Below are positions 3,881-38,037 of a stretch of 64,000 bases of DNA, one piece after another. Below the pieces are notes generated by a model. The model saw only the letters and a list, made by a program, of their open reading frames with translations. It was not told the DNA's origin and did not search any database. The translations under genes and the position numbers were made by a program. The first letter of the stretch is position 1; each line of letters begins with the position of its first letter. This stretch comes from a virus. The DNA is taken from IMG/VR virus record IMGVR_UViG_3300050491_000011; one strand, given 5' to 3'.

Positions 3881-5470
3881 ATGGAATTCAGCATCACTGG
3901 ATTTACCAAACGAAGTTTCTCAGCCGTCGCAGTTTCTCATCCCGGTGAAAACGATATCATCATCAATGCCGCAGGTTACGCTAACGCGAAACCCGGTGCA
4001 GTAAAGAATGATGAAGAGTTCGGAATGCGCGTCGAGCTGTTCAGCGAGATCAACGATCTCATCAGCCGTTATAGCAAGGGGGAACAACAAAAGCTGTACG
4101 ATTGCTACGCCCGCCTTGACACGGTGCTGGACTCGTACGGTACAGATGTGAAAGCCAGTGAGTTCATGGAGCTGTTGCAAGATATCGTTAAAGGTATCTT
4201 CGACATCGTGAAGTTCGAAGACCTGCGTGATTACCTGACCAGTAATAAGAACATCAAGTTCCCCGCAGAACTGGCTGACACTTACGTTACAGCAGATAAG
4301 ATCACTCCGATCTACATGGAGCGTACTTATCTGAAACGGGAATACATCGATCTGGCAGCAGTGGCATTGGGCCTGCGGTGCATGATTCCTGTTTGGGGTG
4401 CTTTCCTTCCAATCGCTATAAAGGAAGAAGGGCCGAAGAAGAAGGAGTACGTTGCGTACAAGCTTCTGGATACCTGCCTGCTTAAGGAGTGTCCTGCATT
4501 CGATCGTCTGGAAACTTACGTTCGGGCAAACACTACCGAGATGGAACACGAGATGGCTATCATCTTCGAGTTCCTGTCATCTGAGGAGATCCCTGTCTTC
4601 TTGATGGCATTGGCATTGATCCGTAAGGTTTCGATTGCACCGTTGTCCGCTGAGACGGATAAGGATCACTTGATGAAGGTGGTCTTCAACTACGTCTGCG
4701 GTAACAACAACAGACTTCCAGCGGCATTCGGCGGTAACATCCGTTCGAAGATCGATGTGGAAGCAGCAACAGACGACAATAGTTCGGTCTGGTGCTACTA
4801 CAAAATGAAGGAGCAGATCAGTACTGGCGACCTCTGCATCTTCCAGCTGTACATCACCGATTATCTTGAAGCGGCTCGCGCCATTGATCAAGAGATCACC
4901 GACGAACAAACCGAGATGTGCGTAGCACGCGCGCAGAAGCTGGCACGGTTTGATCCGAATGACGCACAGATCGCTCTCTGCATCTGGGTAATGTCTACAG
5001 TGGTAGCAGGTTGTGCGATCGAGATGTTCGACCGTAACACTCTGTTCACGGCCATGGGTATCTCCCAGACCGTACTGTGGAAGTGGGGTTTCCATCAATT
5101 GGCAATCCTGCAAACAGCAGCTCCCGTCCAGATGGCTGACGACGAGATGATGACCCCGGTTCCTAGAACCAAGATCAGCGACGAGAACATGAAACAACTG
5201 GAATACATCTATCCTTACACAATGCCGGAGAGCAAGAAGGATAGTGGTCAATCACCAAACGTTGGGGTACGTGGGGTAGAAGACGCGGCAAATGTATTCT
5301 TCAAGAACGAATGGGAACCTCAGTGCCCGCGCCAATTGGCAGCGAAGTTCGAAAGGTCAGACGTTACCCGGCGTCTCCAGGTTTCCAGTGACTTCCGCGA
5401 TGAGCTGGCTGAGTTGTTTATCAAGCTGGACGGTTACGTACGTCACATCCCTATCCCGGTAATGGACTGA
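3881..5470 (+). CDS. Non-virion RNA polymerase promoter-specificity subunit (phiKZ gp68-like)
   Basis: ~529-aa helical protein; ATG 3881 with GGAG RBS; size and position in the chmC-gp68-picA-gp70-nvRNAP block. Confidence 0.7.
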   Translation: MEFSITGFTKRSFSAVAVSHPGENDIIINAAGYANAKPGAVKNDEEFGMRVELFSEINDLISRYSKGEQQKLYDCYARLDTVLDSYGTDVKASEFMELLQDIVKGIFDIVKFEDLRDYLTSNKNIKFPAELADTYVTADKITPIYMERTYLKREYIDLAAVALGLRCMIPVWGAFLPIAIKEEGPKKKEYVAYKLLDTCLLKECPAFDRLETYVRANTTEMEHEMAIIFEFLSSEEIPVFLMALALIRKVSIAPLSAETDKDHLMKVVFNYVCGNNNRLPAAFGGNIRSKIDVEAATDDNSSVWCYYKMKEQISTGDLCIFQLYITDYLEAARAIDQEITDEQTEMCVARAQKLARFDPNDAQIALCIWVMSTVVAGCAIEMFDRNTLFTAMGISQTVLWKWGFHQLAILQTAAPVQMADDEMMTPVPRTKISDENMKQLEYIYPYTMPESKKDSGQSPNVGVRGVEDAANVFFKNEWEPQCPRQLAAKFERSDVTRRLQVSSDFRDELAELFIKLDGYVRHIPIPVMD

Positions 5471-20155: not shown

Positions 20156-20635
20156 ATGCGTAATAATAATTCCGAGCGATTCGTTGCTCACGGAAACTCG
20201 ATCGAAGCTACTAATGCTGAAGTTGAGAAAGAAGTTCAGGGTTATCAGGATACTTTGGCCGTCAGTCTGAATGCTGCGATTCAGCCAGTAAAAGACCTCG
20301 CCGAGTCCATCAACGTATTGCATGCCGAAGGTCGTCAAGAGGACGTGCCTAAATTGACCGGCCTGGTGAAGATGCTCGCTCGTGACGCTGACGTCTTGAT
20401 TGCCGAGAAGAAAGTGGTTGATGAGGAACTGGCCAAGCTTCAGGCTAATCCACCAACCAAGAAGCGCCATCTGTCGAACCACCACGCCGGCCTGATGGCT
20501 GCTGGTGCTAAGTACCTCGGTCTGTCCCAGCGTGCGACGAACACCGTAGGTAACATCCTCGGCGATTACATGGATTTGATCGATCCGCTCAAATCTAAAC
20601 CTGAAACCGCAGAACAAAGTGAGGCTGTATCGTGA
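20156..20635 (+). CDS. Hypothetical helical protein
   Basis: GAGGT RBS; GTGA overlap with the next gene. Confidence 0.75.
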   Translation: MRNNNSERFVAHGNSIEATNAEVEKEVQGYQDTLAVSLNAAIQPVKDLAESINVLHAEGRQEDVPKLTGLVKMLARDADVLIAEKKVVDEELAKLQANPPTKKRHLSNHHAGLMAAGAKYLGLSQRATNTVGNILGDYMDLIDPLKSKPETAEQSEAVS

Positions 20636-22476
20636 GTGACGAACAGATCGTAGATCAACCTGAAGAAGAACGCCCGGTCGTATTGGAAGAGCAGATCTCC
20701 AAACCGGCTGAGTTCACTCCGACTCCTGCTGAAGAGCCTGTAGATCTCAGCGAGCCTCAGTGGCAAGCGATCGATGAACTACCATCGGGCTTCGCTCACG
20801 AGCCAGCACATGAGCATCCAGCGCAAGAAGCTGAAGCTCTGGGTGACCTGATGGCCGCGCTTCCTGTCAGTGAGCAGATCGTCGATCTGTCCGTACCGAC
20901 TCCGGAAGCTGACCCTACGCCAACTCGCGAAATGATCGGCGACTACACGCCGAACATGAACGTCAATGACGATCAGGGTATCTTGACCGTATTGACCGAC
21001 GAACAACTGGCGAAGTTCTCTCGCGACAATCCGTCCGTTCTGCTGTCCAACTTCTCGGCTTCCGAACTGGACGTCATGTACGACCAGATCGAGCGTCAAG
21101 TAGCAGCCGCTCAAGCATCTCGTGAAGAACTCGTGAAGAACGGCGGTGGTGCCGGTCTCTACGCTGGCCGTACTGACGATGGCGAAGTGATCTACATCAC
21201 CGTCAACGAAGGTAAGGCGATGGGTGCGATTGACGACTATCGCAAAACCACCGCCCCATACCGCGACAACGATGATCTCTTCGGCGACGACAGCGAATGG
21301 ACCAACCTGCCTAAGGTCGGTGATACTCCGATTGCTCCTGGCCGTCTGGACCACGAGAAGTCGAAAGACCCGGTCATGCGTATCCGTGGTCGTCTGGGTA
21401 TGGCTGTTGAATACACCAACCCGTTCTGGGCGTCAGGCCTACACATGGTTATCGAAGGCGCTGGTGCGCTGGAAGAACTCTCTCTGGATCAGAAGATCCT
21501 GACTGAGAAAGCCGAGATGGGTCGTGACAGCAGCGGTTATGTCTACAGTGCTTCGGCTCTGTACCTGAACCGTCCTGTGGTTGACTTCGCTCTGAGTCAA
21601 GTGCGTAGCACCACCATCGGTACTACTGATCCGCAAGTGCTGAAGAGCCTCCTGCTGATTACTGATATCGATCCGCTGGCGCTGGCCATGGCTTCTGCCA
21701 ACATGCCTAACGGCTTCCTGCTGGAACGTCCTTGCCTGGAACAGATCGGCGGTTGCGGTTACGTTACCAAGCGTCAGGTGAACCTGCGCCGTATGCTGAT
21801 GGTTCGTCGTTCGAAGTTGTCGGATGACCAAGCTCAGTTCATGAGCAAGCGTGCTGGTACTGTTGACATCAAGACTGTTCTCGGCTACCAAGCCAAGATG
21901 CGTCCTGAGATCAGCCGTATCGTCCAACTGAAAGGCGGCATGATCCTGCGCTTCAAGGTTCCTACCATCGCTGAATACGAGCGTATCGCTTCGGCATGGC
22001 TGGACTACATGGATCAGCAGTCCCGTAAGGTTGCTGCCAGCAATGCTAACCAGCAAGAGCGTGAAGCGTTCCTGTTGAAGGCATCTCGTGTCTCCGTTCT
22101 GATGGCCTACGGTCACTGGATCGAAGCTATCCTCGAAACCAACCCTGACGATCTGGCTGCTGAGCCTAAAGTAATGATCGAACGCGTTGGCGAAGAAGGT
22201 AGTCCTGAGCAGTACCAGTCTGACGTTCAAATGCAGCGTCTGTTGGTATCTCTGGCTGTCGATCAGGATCTGAGCGATCAGATCATCGAAGAGCTCAGCG
22301 AGTTCATCAACCAGATGACCATGTCTACACCGGTTATCCCGAAGATGAAGTGCCCGAACTGCGGTAAACAGATGCACGGCGACGATGCTTCGAAGCATCC
22401 ACACCTTGTAAACCTGAACGCCGTAGAAGTTTTTTTTACCCTACTCCGCCTCAGAATGCAAAAGCTGTCAAGCTAA
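20632..22476 (+). CDS. Putative T4 gp26-like baseplate hub / tail assembly chaperone with a C-terminal Zn-ribbon half-site
   Basis: 614 aa; acidic N-terminus, internal CLEQIGGC and C-terminal KCPNCGK; ends ...NAVEVFF over a T8 run. Confidence 0.55.
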   Translation: MSDEQIVDQPEEERPVVLEEQISKPAEFTPTPAEEPVDLSEPQWQAIDELPSGFAHEPAHEHPAQEAEALGDLMAALPVSEQIVDLSVPTPEADPTPTREMIGDYTPNMNVNDDQGILTVLTDEQLAKFSRDNPSVLLSNFSASELDVMYDQIERQVAAAQASREELVKNGGGAGLYAGRTDDGEVIYITVNEGKAMGAIDDYRKTTAPYRDNDDLFGDDSEWTNLPKVGDTPIAPGRLDHEKSKDPVMRIRGRLGMAVEYTNPFWASGLHMVIEGAGALEELSLDQKILTEKAEMGRDSSGYVYSASALYLNRPVVDFALSQVRSTTIGTTDPQVLKSLLLITDIDPLALAMASANMPNGFLLERPCLEQIGGCGYVTKRQVNLRRMLMVRRSKLSDDQAQFMSKRAGTVDIKTVLGYQAKMRPEISRIVQLKGGMILRFKVPTIAEYERIASAWLDYMDQQSRKVAASNANQQEREAFLLKASRVSVLMAYGHWIEAILETNPDDLAAEPKVMIERVGEEGSPEQYQSDVQMQRLLVSLAVDQDLSDQIIEELSEFINQMTMSTPVIPKMKCPNCGKQMHGDDASKHPHLVNLNAVEVFFTLLRLRMQKLSS

Positions 22477-22955
22477 CTCCCAACGGCGAAGTGTATCACC
22501 ACATCGGCCTCCACGATTTCGGCAGAGAGATCACTCCGTTCACGGAAGGTACTCCTCTGTACAACTTAATCATGGGTAAGACCGTGAAGGACGACTTCAC
22601 TTCGCAGTTGATGTTCCTTGAAGCTTACGACGAAACCTTCGGTATCTTCGACCACGCCACATTCGACCACAACGACCCAATGTCTATCATCGCGATGCAT
22701 CCATCCGAAGATATGATCACTGGGTCACGGTTGGTGTCGTACTCGAGGGAACTGATGGCCTGTCGTATTCCTGAGCTGACCAATAAGCCTATCGATGAAC
22801 TGATGAGATTACCCAAGTGGTATTTGGATGATCTTCTGAAGGATGGGCGTAAGGCACGGACTCGGGAAGATGCTGAAGTGGAGAAGATGCAGAACGATCT
22901 CAAGGCTAGTGCCGAAGCTGCGGCTGAACGTTCGCAGAACGGTGAGAAACCGTAG
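22437..22955 (+). CDS. Start-less ORF, probably translated as the -1 frameshift extension of 20632..22476 (gp51/GT-like tail)
   Basis: The -1 frame is open from the T8 run to TAG 22955; no RBS before GTG 22491; C-terminal IDELMRLPKWYLDDLL. Confidence 0.65.
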   Translation, partial: YPTPPQNAKAVKLTPNGEVYHHIGLHDFGREITPFTEGTPLYNLIMGKTVKDDFTSQLMFLEAYDETFGIFDHATFDHNDPMSIIAMHPSEDMITGSRLVSYSRELMACRIPELTNKPIDELMRLPKWYLDDLLKDGRKARTREDAEVEKMQNDLKASAEAAAERSQNGEKP

Positions 22956-34375: not shown

Positions 34376-34887
34376 GCAACCTCGTATATACACACCGTGG
34401 CTTCCCATGCGTGATGGATATCGAGATTTCCCAAGGGGCTGTTTACGAAGCCCCTGAGGTCAGCACGATCTATCGTGAACGCATGCAGCAAACTCGCCCT
34501 GGGTTTGAAGTCGAACTCGATCAGGTTGAAATGCTATTAGGTGAGTGGACTCGTACTGGTGGCTTCTTCACCCCGAGTCTGCACCCGTCGGTACGTCTGA
34601 GCGGCTCTGTGCAGTCGTTCATTGCCGAGACAGCGCTCTTCCTGACCAAGCGTATCACTCGCCGTCGCGTCAGCTTCCAAGACCGCGGTATGCTGATGAA
34701 GCAAGACATCGCTGTGGCCACACGTCTCCCAACCTTCACTGATGACGAGCGTGCGGCATTGACTGAACTCTCTGGTATGAAACCAGAAGTTCTGATCCAG
34801 TTCTGGATCACCCGGCTGGGCCTGGACGATCTGTCTTGCTCCATGCAGTTGTATGTAGGTGACCGTTCCAATTCGGACATGATGTAA
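34372..34887 (+). CDS. Virion-associated protein (phiKZ gp91-like)
   Basis: 171 aa; ATGA overlap with the previous gene. Confidence 0.6.
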   Translation: MSNLVYTHRGFPCVMDIEISQGAVYEAPEVSTIYRERMQQTRPGFEVELDQVEMLLGEWTRTGGFFTPSLHPSVRLSGSVQSFIAETALFLTKRITRRRVSFQDRGMLMKQDIAVATRLPTFTDDERAALTELSGMKPEVLIQFWITRLGLDDLSCSMQLYVGDRSNSDMM

Positions 34888-34945
34888 TAATGTGCGTATA
34901 CGCCGTCGGTTGCGCACCGACGATTAATATCCCTAGGAGTTTCAC

Positions 34946-36283
34946 ATGAGCAAATCTCTGCACGCAGCCCTTCTTCAATACGGCGTCGAATCCGGCGAGA
35001 TCGAGCCAGAAGAAGTGATCTACCCGGCCGGTGAAGAAGAAATCACCGTCATCACCGACGAAACCATGTCGGACCTGGAAGAAGCCGTTGCCGAACTGGC
35101 CGACGACGTCGAAAAGGTTGAAGACCACGAAAACGGCGCCGAAAAGGTGATCGAGGCTGTTGAATCCCTGGAAGCCTACGTTGTTCAGTTCGAACGTCTG
35201 GGCGAAGCCGGCATCAGCATCAACACCACCGCGGCCAACTTCGCGCTGCAAGGCATCGTCGCTTCCCTGGAAGGCCGCAACATTCCTGCCGCCGTCTACA
35301 GCACCGAAGCCTTCGCGCTGCAAGAGTCGTTCGAAGCTGACGACAAAGAAGCCGACAAAGGTCCTGGCCTGCTGGGCAAGGGTAAAGCCCTGCTGACCAA
35401 GCTGTGGAACATGTTGAAAGCCGCTGCTGGCGCTGTGAAGCAAGCCATCATCGACTTCTTCGCCACCATGGGCAAATCCGCTGCCGCCATCAAGGCCGGC
35501 GGTGAGAAGCTGAAGCGTGTTGGCGCATCGATCAAAGACAGCAAAACTGTCTCCCTGAAAGGTGGCTCGTATAGCGCTCTGACCGTTGGCGGTTCGGTTG
35601 ATCCGATCAAGGCAATGGGTGACGTTAATAGCGGCTACAAGACCGCTGTTGTTGACAACATCACCAAGCTGCGCATCGTGGTTAACCCACTGGTGAAAGC
35701 TCTGCGCAACCCAACTCCAGGCGGCGTCAAGTCGGCTGCTGAAGGTATCGACGTCAAGTCGCTGGCTTCCGCAAGCGCTTCCCTGCCAGGCGGCTTCGTT
35801 GCTCACTTCACCGTTGGTTCGGGTGAAGGCGTTGCAGCTCTGACCGGCACTACCTTCAAGATCGAGAAGACCAAAGGCGGCGAAGCTGCTAAGGACTTCA
35901 ACGCTCTGTCCGGTGGTGACATCGTCAAGCTGGGTACTGCTGTTGTTGCCACTGCTGACCTGATGGTCAAAGCCAAGTCCGACGCTGACGCCATCATCAA
36001 GTCGAACGACGAGCTGCTGTCGGCCGCTACCACCGCGATCAACGCTGCCAAGGACGACGAAGCTCAGGGCGCTGCTCGCGAGCTGCTGAAGACCGCTACC
36101 AAGCTGATGTCCGTTACCAAGGGCTTCGTACCTACCTACGTTCGCTACATGGCTACCACTGCCAAGGTTGCGTACAAAGCTGGTATGGCCTCGGCTTCGG
36201 CTCACGGCAAGAAAGACAAAGCTGAAGACGGCGCGGCTGATAAGCCAGCTGACCCAAAGCTGCTGAAAAACGAGGACAAGTAA
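34946..36283 (+). CDS. Inner-head/ejection protein paralogue (phiKZ gp92-97-like family) with an acidic propeptide
   Basis: 445 aa; AGGAG RBS; GVE, SLE, STE and SFE motifs, then a K/A-rich mature domain. Confidence 0.75.
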   Translation: MSKSLHAALLQYGVESGEIEPEEVIYPAGEEEITVITDETMSDLEEAVAELADDVEKVEDHENGAEKVIEAVESLEAYVVQFERLGEAGISINTTAANFALQGIVASLEGRNIPAAVYSTEAFALQESFEADDKEADKGPGLLGKGKALLTKLWNMLKAAAGAVKQAIIDFFATMGKSAAAIKAGGEKLKRVGASIKDSKTVSLKGGSYSALTVGGSVDPIKAMGDVNSGYKTAVVDNITKLRIVVNPLVKALRNPTPGGVKSAAEGIDVKSLASASASLPGGFVAHFTVGSGEGVAALTGTTFKIEKTKGGEAAKDFNALSGGDIVKLGTAVVATADLMVKAKSDADAIIKSNDELLSAATTAINAAKDDEAQGAARELLKTATKLMSVTKGFVPTYVRYMATTAKVAYKAGMASASAHGKKDKAEDGAADKPADPKLLKNEDK

Positions 36284-36621
36284 AATCCGCCGAGGACGCT
36301 CCGGCGTCCGTCACCTCGAACGTTGAAAAGTTCGTTAAAGAAGGTGACTTGGACCACATTCGTACAGCTCTACGTTTGGAGCTGAACAATGCGAAGTTGT
36401 CCTCGAAGGATTTCGTTGAGATGGTTAAGTGGGTGAAGGCCAACGTCAAAGGGTTGTTCGTACCTTACGATGAAGGTTCCTTCGCCAGGGAGATGAAAGA
36501 GAGTAAGTCGGATTGGGACGAGGACTACTTCCATATGCAAGTAGTCTACCTGAAAACCAACTTCTCTGAAAAGCGTCTCCAACACCTCATCCGTGTTAAC
36601 GAGCACTTGTCGAAGAAGTGA
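36253..36621 (+). CDS. Start-less ~120-aa domain, probably the -1 frameshift extension of 34946..36283
   Basis: The -1 frame opens exactly at the slippery C_CCA_AAG (36253-36259); TTG 36349 has no properly spaced RBS. Confidence 0.7.
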   Translation, partial: PKAAEKRGQVKSAEDAPASVTSNVEKFVKEGDLDHIRTALRLELNNAKLSSKDFVEMVKWVKANVKGLFVPYDEGSFAREMKESKSDWDEDYFHMQVVYLKTNFSEKRLQHLIRVNEHLSKK

Positions 36622-36640
36622 TCTAATCGCTTCTAGTATA

Positions 36641-36670
36641 GCGGGGGTGGAAACACCCCCGTTCTATGCC
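36641..36670 (+). terminator. Stem-loop GCGGGGGTG-GAAA-CACCCCCGT followed by TCTATGCC
   Basis: GNRA hairpin after the extension ORF, not after the stop at 36283. Confidence 0.7.
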
Positions 36671-36729
36671 GCGTTTATGATATAGCTTCCGCTATCAACA
36701 CCATCCTACTTGTGCAACGGGTGATAACA

Positions 36730-38037
36730 ATGACACGGTTCTCCGACGAATTCAAACAGTCGATGCTTGGCGACGGTTCTTTCGAATCCGCCATCGTCGA
36801 TGAAAGCGCTTACCAAGAAACAGGCATCACTCCTGAGCTGGTTATCCAGACTCAAGAAGAACGTGCAGAGCTCGCTGATGCTCTGGATCAGGTTGATGAA
36901 ATCGGTGATGACCGTAAAGACATCGACGCTGCCGCTGCTGTAACTGACGCTGTTGTATCGGCAGTAAGCGCTGCTGAAACCATGCCCGCTGCTGCATCGG
37001 AAACCTTCGCTGAGATTGCGAACGTAACCATCGCTTCGGCTGCTCAAGTGCTGGACATGGAAATGCCTCGTCTCGAGACTGATCCACACACCGGCGCTAT
37101 CACCGAAGCATCCATGGAAAGCTTCAGCAGCTGGTTCTCCGGCGCTGCCAAGTCCTTCATGGAAGCCAGTGCGAACTTCTTTGCTCGTATCGGTCTGGGT
37201 ATCTCCCGTCTGAACGACAGCTCCCAAGGTCTGACTAAGCGCTGCATGCGCGTTCGTACCGTGATGGGTGATCGTAAAGGCAACGGCGGTAAGCCAATCA
37301 AGCTGAGCTCCGGCGTGCAGCGCCATCTGGTGCTGGGTGATGGTTATGCCTCCAGTCCTATCGAAGCTCTCACCGAGTTCTCGGTTACCAACATCAGCGT
37401 TACTCGTGTAATCAACGAGTACCACAAGCGTCTGGGTGATCTGATCAAGGATCGTATCTTCGCAGCTGTTGCGTCTGGTCAGAAGAACGACATCTTCGTT
37501 GACCTGAAGAGTTCCGACCTGCTGGAAGATCTCGAGAAGATCCTCGGCCGTCAGCCGAAGAACCTGATGGGTAACCAGATCTACGGGTTCAACGATCGCC
37601 CTGTCAACAAGGTGCTGACCGTAACCCTGCAATCGGGCATGCCTAACGCCATCGACCTGATCCGTCACCTCGATGCTCCGAACTCTCTGAGCAACGAACA
37701 GATCAGCGCGATGCTGGGTTCTCTGGAAGGTTTGATCGCTGAGCAACTGATTGCTCTCGAGAAGATCACCAGTCAGTCCAAGGCTTCGTTCAAGTCCCTG
37801 CAAGACGTGATCAAGAAGTTCAACGGCATGGCTGAAGAAGCTGAGATCGCTCAGCTCAAAGCCGGCGGCGCTGAAGCACCTGTTGCCATCAACTCGATGG
37901 AACTGCTGCGCGTCGAGAACCAACTGGTTTCCGAACTCGGCCGCGTCTGCGACCGTCTGGTTGATTACCAGCGTGACATGATCGACCGTATCGACTCGTT
38001 GTTGACTTTGGTCGAAGAGTCGGTCTTCCAAGACTGA
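36730..38037 (+). CDS. Inner-head protein with an acidic propeptide
   Basis: ~435 aa; SFE and ASMES motifs followed by an amphipathic FSSWF...FF segment. Confidence 0.7.
   Translation: MTRFSDEFKQSMLGDGSFESAIVDESAYQETGITPELVIQTQEERAELADALDQVDEIGDDRKDIDAAAAVTDAVVSAVSAAETMPAAASETFAEIANVTIASAAQVLDMEMPRLETDPHTGAITEASMESFSSWFSGAAKSFMEASANFFARIGLGISRLNDSSQGLTKRCMRVRTVMGDRKGNGGKPIKLSSGVQRHLVLGDGYASSPIEALTEFSVTNISVTRVINEYHKRLGDLIKDRIFAAVASGQKNDIFVDLKSSDLLEDLEKILGRQPKNLMGNQIYGFNDRPVNKVLTVTLQSGMPNAIDLIRHLDAPNSLSNEQISAMLGSLEGLIAEQLIALEKITSQSKASFKSLQDVIKKFNGMAEEAEIAQLKAGGAEAPVAINSMELLRVENQLVSELGRVCDRLVDYQRDMIDRIDSLLTLVEESVFQD

Follow-up and report, generated by a model that had tools for sequence, protein, structure and literature searches.

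How could a phage make a conserved protein domain when the codons for its first helix lie ahead of any start codon, in a reading frame that overlaps the end of another gene? The question is raised by a stretch of 64,000 nucleotides (nt) from IMG/VR virus record IMGVR_UViG_3300050491_000011 (the window, to which positions refer unless another contig is named), in which the gene for a phiKZ-type internal head protein (IHP) is followed, in the -1 frame, by an open reading frame (ORF) for such a domain. We think it reasonably probable that a -1 frameshift at a slippery heptamer, C_CCA_AAG, near the end of the IHP gene gives access to this domain and makes a minor 558-residue fusion of the head protein with it. 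The features that bear most directly on this proposal are:

34946..36283, plus strand: IHP gene, zero frame, 445 codons (PF12699, phrog_2497)
36250..36252, plus strand: TGA that closes the -1 frame immediately 5' of the heptamer (from the sequence)
36253..36259, plus strand: slippery heptamer C_CCA_AAG, within GAC CCA AAG (36251-36259), a canonical X_XXY_YYZ
36253..36621, plus strand: -1 ORF of 122 codons plus TGA (36619-36621), encoding a linker and then a helical domain of ~100 residues
36316..36342, plus strand: codons for predicted helix 1 of the domain (residues 22-30 of the -1 ORF), 5' of any start codon (AF2 model, alignment and hidden Markov model, HMM)
36342..36351, plus strand: Shine-Dalgarno (SD)-like AGGTGA (36342-36347) and TTG 36349 (residue 33 of the -1 ORF), which would start a 90-residue product without helix 1

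IHP is a phiKZ-type internal head protein and a member of PF12699. The phiKZ_IP profile matched its residues 45-409 with 65.7 bits (cut-off 27), covering positions 3-381 of the 387 in the model, and the internal head protein family phrog_2497 of PHROGs matched as well (E 1.8e-5). The gene ends ...GCT GAC CCA AAG CTG CTG AAA AAC GAG GAC AAG TAA, which places C_CCA_AAG seven codons 5' of the stop at 36281-36283; no other in-frame X_XXY_YYZ occurs across the 445 codons. From the heptamer the -1 frame extends far past the IHP stop into conserved coding sequence, and a slip would yield a protein of 438 + 120 = 558 residues. The heptamer coincides with the point at which the -1 frame opens, so that some of the ribosomes would be likely to slip there. 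An initial annotation of this DNA, made from the letters alone, had proposed the frameshift; the heptamer, the TGA at 36250-36252, the -1 frame running to TGA 36621 and its translation were all confirmed in the sequence.

The AF2 model, made from a 16-sequence alignment, predicts a five-helix domain (mean pLDDT 86.4) with its first helix at residues 22-30 of the -1 ORF (pLDDT 91 for block 21-30). Homologues align from window residue ~20 onward, and helix 1 was found in every full-length homologue aligned; window residues 23-32, NVEKFVKEGD, correspond to the family motif N.xKF[VI].EGD, in which F27 is nearly invariant. A family HMM of 15 other sequences, with the window left out, was aligned from residue 20; with it the full ORF scored 144.8 bits and the product from the TTG 124.0 bits. 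Residues 1-32, upstream of the TTG, add 20.8 bits, and none of 200 shuffles of these residues reached 144.8 bits (mean 125.7, maximum 130.4). Hence the remark in the initial annotation that about 32 well-formed codons precede the called TTG start holds: a conserved helix is encoded there, and the gain in profile score is significant. Between 36253 and 36348 the -1 frame contains no ATG, GTG, TTG, CTG or ATH, the first start codon being TTG 36349, and non-canonical starts 5' of it were rejected because none is in frame. Since the conserved helix 1 precedes the only start codon, the complete domain would be unobtainable here by ordinary initiation.

The sequences of other jumbo phages indicate that fusion of an internal head protein to this domain is a natural and common architecture. 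PF12699 scored above its cut-off in 15 of 21 long domain-bearing homologues, namely P0045 (574 amino acids, aa), P0046 (458 aa) and P0047 (565 aa), with 174, 46.5 and 161 bits, and 12 of 18 further long proteins drawn from the 150 best representatives (a further 2 were below the cut-off and 4 had no match). The domain was single-copy in these 18 except for one protein with several copies. It is C-terminal in most of the fusions to the phiKZ_IP (IP) part and central in some, and the in-frame fusions span 448-585 residues. At the DNA level the P0046 locus is a single ORF (L079 1894..3321) in a 233-kb viral contig. The IP parts match the window IHP at the family level only, which indicates that the domain has been joined to different IP paralogues; that of P0045 is 42-45% identical to the internal head proteins of 201phi2-1 and Viktualia, and its C-terminal domain was covered by none of 65 matching cultured Pseudomonas phage records at a coverage of at least 80%. 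In two cultured phages, Kc263 (333 aa) and pEt-SU (345 aa), the domain forms the C-terminal third of a longer protein, whose N-terminal part matched PF12699 with 31 bits in pEt-SU gp029 and, below the cut-off, with 17.7 bits in Kc263 QYN80000. A tblastn search with P0096 and P0113 found no cultured phage besides these two, which are usable for experiments on in-frame versions; the Kc263 paper contains no mass spectrometry. In the window itself, IHP and the domain lie in separate frames (0 and -1) and not in one reading frame.

A database protein of 617 aa, P0178, contains the domain three times in tandem, preceded by a segment that resembles an IP targeting helix at its N-terminus; it has no PF12699 match.

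The -1 layout recurs in the nearest relative of the window domain, which lies on a 243-kb contig (L003) with an identical sequence, L005, from another metagenome. The IHP gene of L003 (2739..4064) ends GCG GGA AAC TGA, and the domain frame, open from 3986, is again -1. CTG 4061, which overlaps the IHP stop, is the first codon of the conserved N-terminus LTGSDNVDKFI, and the first canonical start in the domain frame is 27 codons further on. Directly 5' of the IHP stop lies a canonical heptamer that differs from that of the window, G_GGA_AAC (4055-4061), and a hairpin starts 7 nt 3' of it (z -2.44; 5 of 200 shuffles fold equally well). P0125, a closer relative of L003, was likewise called from an internal Leu codon.

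Is the window heptamer of a kind that shifts? E. coli copA uses the same heptamer, C_CCA_AAG, with a downstream structure and the nascent peptide as stimulators, of which we saw no counterpart at the window heptamer. The CopA frameshift is mentioned in the abstract of PMC9548414. In the passages of PMC5009743 that deal with it, C_CCA_AAG is described as highly shift-prone in E. coli, a property that rests on a sole tRNA-Lys pairing weakly with AAG, and about half of bacteria are stated to have one tRNA-Lys only. The window site would resemble the bacterial one, as far as those passages describe it, in both the heptamer and the dependence on a single tRNA-Lys(UUU) reading AAA and AAG. Among bacteria, Pseudomonas has the homologues closest to the domain, and a Pseudomonas fluorescens genome had, like E. 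coli, tRNA-Lys(UUU) only, among 58 tRNA hits, a match that would count if the window phage infects a Pseudomonas. The tRNAs encoded by the phage are Asn, Ser and Asp only. Two RNA runs contained 6-8% of the sampled words.

Several further features lie at or beyond the end of the IHP gene:

36259..36294, plus strand: linker codons A-A-E (36259-36267) and S-A-E (36286-36294), possible prohead-protease sites
36284..36656, plus strand: 373-nt segment directly 3' of the IHP stop, with ~45 nt instead in the closest relatives (L021, X14, X17)
36294..36309, plus strand: hairpin GGACGC-TCCG-GCGTCC, 6 bp, 35 nt 3' of the heptamer
36640..36663, plus strand: GC-rich hairpin 3' of the -1 ORF, likely transcript end (from the sequence)

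The initial annotation had listed the hairpin at 36294-36309 with the frameshift. The hairpin exists, and a role as canonical stimulator was not supported, since it is 35 nt away and the region folds no better than shuffled sequence. Given that no stimulatory structure follows the window heptamer, low rather than high shifting is to be expected; a low level would fit a low-copy cargo. Transcriptional slippage was rejected as the source of the frame change, as nearby A runs reach 5 at most.

To ask how the locus varies, we compared the window with its closest relatives. Contigs X5 (36177-36375) and X6 (36185-36370), from two other studies, span the junction in the same frames, with no indel, 3 substitutions and 1 substitution, respectively, and an intact heptamer in both. 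Five viral contigs carry the neighbouring 171-aa gene, the product of which is 95% identical in L021; the domain ORF is present in one of them, L024 (the same contig as L003), and absent from L021, L022, L023 and L025, which have the IHP gene only. L021 reads GAT CCA AAG, and so has no heptamer, and also AAC GAT GAC, which places a TGA in the -1 frame. A 13-kb contig, X14, skips 36284-36656, has 45 other letters there and reads GAT, and the X17 records have loose ends that match the insert-less form. The segment 36284-36656 is therefore a presence/absence polymorphism in natural populations; the ~45 nt that replace it in L021, X14 and X17 carry a different GC-rich hairpin. Along the alignment of the window with L021, divergence is a mosaic of 0-25% per 90-nt bin, with 10.8-14.3% per bin in the last ~110 nt of the IHP gene and 1-4% in the preceding 600 nt.

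The initial annotation had asked for conservation of CCCAAAG in related phages, and the outcome is mixed. The heptamer is kept in all three ORF-bearing forms (the window, X5 and X6), but these are near-identical to one another, and L003 has a different one. Among the insert-less variants, three of four (L021, X14 and X17 record 4) read GAT CCA AAG, and X17 record 5 keeps GAC CCA AAG. That three of the four insert-less forms have the rare GAT would be consistent with a shifty site being avoided, although the three may share one origin.

How much weight the heptamer itself can bear depends on its background. In the 188,198-base genome (207 ORFs), we counted 65 in-frame X_XXY_YYZ heptamers at 56,253 codon positions, 10 of which are XXXAAAG. 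The chance of finding one within the ~10-codon productive stretch is ~1% for any type and ~0.2% for the XXXAAAG type. A number of observations weigh against the frameshift. These rates are rough, because the crude ORF set omitted the IHP gene and kept at least one antisense ORF. Asp is encoded in the IHP gene by 25 GAC and 2 GAT codons; with GAC as the default, the heptamer is expected from codon bias alone, given the residues D-P-K, and the argument from the heptamer is weakened. Neither a stimulatory structure 5-9 nt 3' of the window heptamer (36253-36345: z -0.43, 62 of 200 shuffles fold equally well) nor an SD-like element 5' of it was seen. The heptamer is not tied to the domain ORF, as X17 record 5 shows, and the ORF itself is accessory, being absent from four of the five related contigs. 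In L003 the heptamer ends in AAC, and in P0006, from a related 243-kb contig, an ATG is aligned with the CTG of L003; an ancestral ATGA stop-start overlap, followed by coupling at CTG, could explain L003 without a frameshift. Stand-alone homologues of 101-115 residues that start with ATG also exist (P0005, P0006, P0007), and the AGGTGA ahead of TTG 36349 makes a 90-residue product possible.

This last point leads to the explanation that competes most directly with the frameshift, and to which we give a modest chance: the domain would be made only as a separate 90-residue protein from TTG 36349 via AGGTGA, possibly after termination at the IHP stop 66 nt upstream. The conserved codons upstream would then be the leftover of a longer ancestral gene, and the heptamer a by-product of D-P-K in preferred codons. 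The preference for GAC, the lack of a stimulator at the window heptamer and the heptamer in the insert-less X17 record 5 all fit this explanation, as do the stand-alone ATG-started homologues and seven short database calls that start inside the domain. These include P0125 and six calls that begin with M at profile positions 25-47 (P0107, P0143, P0159, P0170, P0175 and P0189), two of the six lying on contigs of 86 and 248 kb. The 90-aa call of the window itself is in the database as P0003. The initial annotation had found no properly spaced ribosome binding site at TTG 36349. This holds only in part: an SD-like AGGTGA does precede the TTG, with 1 nt between the two, and the same bases encode the conserved E-G-D of the domain. 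TTG is also weak as a start. The 90-residue product would lack helix 1, which is confidently predicted, is common to the full-length homologues aligned and is worth 20.8 bits; even P0005 and P0007, the shortest ATG-started homologues, begin 8 residues ahead of the TTG position. The branch of the window copy is moreover long (0.55 changes per column, identity 55% at most); over such a distance, codons that are no longer translated would be expected to decay, unless loss of the start was a recent event.

In a further explanation, an IHP-domain fusion was recently broken or recombined by an exchange that disrupted the frame, and the domain, left out of frame, is expressed no more than translational noise. 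In-frame fusions being the common form elsewhere, the polymorphism of 36284-36656 among close relatives and the raised divergence from L021 over the final ~110 nt of the IHP gene, such as a nearby recombination joint would leave, are in line with such an event. We nevertheless consider it quite improbable, because the -1 ORF is intact over 122 codons (a stop-free run of this length has a random chance of ~0.3% by our own calculation), is unchanged in three assemblies from different studies and has a GC content at third codon positions (GC3) of 0.62, which matches that of neighbouring phage genes (0.59-0.73); furthermore, a recent accident is hard to reconcile with the same -1 layout in the L003 lineage, which is more distant. 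An assembly or sequencing indel could also have split one in-frame gene, and the similar length of the in-frame fusions in other phages would suit it. This was rejected as very improbable: X5 and X6 have no inserted or deleted letters at the junction, and L003 and L005, from different metagenomes, also have the -1 layout. On balance, the minor 558-residue form that had been proposed is strengthened by the start-less helix 1, the natural fusions, the L003 layout and tRNA-Lys(UUU), while initiation at TTG 36349 continues to compete with it.

If the frameshift takes place, a minority of ribosomes would slip back one base at C_CCA_AAG to give the 558-residue fusion; with no stimulator in evidence, the percentage that do so in the host is probably low, and some initiation at TTG 36349 may run alongside. 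Like the natural in-frame fusions, the protein would carry the domain into the prohead by means of its IP part, and the prohead protease might free it at A-A-E or S-A-E in the linker. PMC10052503 gives AXE as the cleavage motif of the SPN3US prohead protease; both linker sites fit it, although the motif is too short and common to count as evidence. The domain would then be ejected with the DNA. The same paper describes phiKZ_IP-type proteins as packaged inside the head and as presumably entering the host.

The minor C-terminally extended form of a virion protein beside a major short form has precedents. The T7 capsid proteins 10A and 10B are made by a -1 frameshift. In lambda, gpG and gpGT arise from a -1 frameshift at G_GGA_AAG (PMC5009743). 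As in both systems, the window heptamer lies near the end of a virion gene. The present case differs from them in three respects: it concerns an internal head (ejection-type) protein, and one from a phiKZ-like jumbo phage; what is added is a folded domain that has relatives in bacteria; and no stimulator was seen beside the heptamer. We found no paper that brings frameshifting together with the inner body of phiKZ, and, among the papers listed, none with 'ribosomal frameshift' alongside 'internal head protein'. Should the slip prove real, recoding would be reported here for the first time in an internal head or ejection protein from a phiKZ-like phage, and a way for these phages to control how many copies of a cargo they inject would come to light.

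What is the domain? A profile search of 1.84 billion cluster representatives gave 471 relatives at E<=1e-3. IHP itself belongs to the phiKZ_IP family of phiKZ, 201phi2-1, PhiPA3 and SPN3US, whereas the added domain had no match in Pfam, PHROGs, PADLOC or NCBIfam. Whether or not the frameshift occurs, the analysis thus delineates a domain family that is absent from every library searched and is fused to PF12699 proteins in at least 15 protein clusters. The domain is without a convincing solved structural relative: the best values were E 1.1 with Foldseek against the PDB, E 0.79 in a PDB profile search and Z 5.8 in a wide VIA-align search, the last being under the meaningful level for helical proteins. 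A search of the Atlas returned bacterial two-domain clusters only. In a tree, the phage copies (10 rows) split from the bacterial copies (17 rows) with support of 98/97, and the nearest row to the window copy is L003 (55% identity). A separate phage clade together with neighbour-like GC3 points to long residence in phages and no recent bacterial capture, so the suggestion that the domain was captured from bacteria did not hold up as a recent event.

The bacterial copies have a constant setting. Sixteen metagenome loci matched, one of which was the L003 phage again and one a spurious partial match, which left 14 bacterial loci. The homologues in all 14 are ~290-310 residues long and consist of two tandem domain copies and a C-terminal hydrophobic anchor. 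A dynamin-family GTPase is encoded directly upstream in 14 of 14 (PF00350, 62-63 bits in both GTPases tested), a HerA/DUF87 ATPase directly downstream in 13 of 14, the fourteenth locus ending too early, and a 189-aa gene further upstream wherever the contig reaches. This bears out the remark in the initial annotation on bacterial relatives beside GTPase or dynamin-like genes and adds the ATPase to it. The two-domain gene occurs, among others, in named genomes of several Pseudomonas species and of Paraburkholderia, Stutzerimonas, Halomonas and Delftia. Both halves of the middle protein are homologues of the phage domain, with 40-56% identity for the second; the phage form differs from the bacterial arrangement, in which two copies and an anchor stand between GTPase and ATPase, in having one copy, no anchor and a phage context.

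At L006-L019 and L026-L031, in Pseudomonas and further Proteobacteria, we observed a conserved four-gene module encoding the 189-aa protein, the GTPase (~750 aa), the two-domain membrane-anchored protein (~295 aa) and the HerA/DUF87 ATPase (at least 927 aa). We regard it as a candidate uncharacterised system, which may be a defence. PADLOC returned mad8/HerA matches for both ATPases tested; its LeoBC model, which belongs to the dynamin-like anti-phage system Eleos, matched the L011 GTPase weakly (E 2.1e-6, 25 bits) and the L019 GTPase not at all. The middle two-domain protein had no family in Pfam, NCBIfam or PADLOC, and no paper was found that joins dynamin-like, HerA and anti-phage.

A domain common to head proteins and the bacterial GTPase/membrane protein/HerA module gives a testable link between capsid-delivered proteins and an uncharacterised system. 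Once in the cell, the domain might act on the host module, the middle membrane-anchored protein of which consists of two copies of it. T4 IPI* is a capsid-packed protein that is injected to block a host restriction system, and the likeness lies in the idea of an anti-defence cargo loaded in the head and delivered with the DNA, the role of the phage domain being only proposed here; IPI* uses an N-terminal capsid targeting peptide, and the window a fusion to an inner-body protein. Taken to its full extent, the proposal would be that inner-body proteins of jumbo phages are carriers of an undescribed cargo domain that copies a building block of the module's membrane-anchored protein, and that in the window phage this cargo is dosed by the -1 frameshift, with few copies per head injected and the module disarmed before phage gene expression. 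We regard this, as a whole, as rather unlikely.

Elsewhere in the window there is a second -1 candidate, a T run, GTT TTT TTT ACC, at 22429-22437, 13 codons before the stop of a 617-aa ORF (20623..22476). A -1 ORF at 22368..22955 reaches 479 nt past that stop, with a GTG near 22490, and matches phrog_12109 from its residue 21 as well as stand-alone genes such as PhiPA3 gp073. This downstream ORF is most likely an ordinary separate gene.

On the minus strand, an antisense ORF of 465 codons (34808-36205) is longer than the IHP gene that it overlaps; it is taken to be a by-product of the strong codon bias of the IHP gene, which it displaced from the ORF set used for the heptamer count.

The source of the window is a soil phage, a phiKZ-like jumbo phage distant from cultured ones. 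A neighbouring virion protein is at most 34% identical to those of cultured phages, and DNA and protein searches found no match among the GenBank phage records available to them to the region (DNA), to IHP or to the 171-aa neighbour. Scans of genome contigs with the 171-aa neighbour and of viral contigs with P0189 found nothing. The hairpin at 36640-36663 has no T run, for which reason a simple terminator scan did not report it, and equivalent hairpins trail the last ORF in L003 and L021. Just beyond it, the intergenic segment 36664-36698, TATGCCGCGTTTATGATATAGCTTCCGCTAT, is almost invariant between the window and L021 despite differing flanks, and may be a candidate phage promoter for the next head gene. 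The genes that follow the domain ORF (36712-38037 in the window, 4482-5648 in L003) are further head-protein paralogues, the one in L003 matching PF12699 with 44.9 bits and the one in the window having no Pfam match; the locus is an array of IP-like genes.

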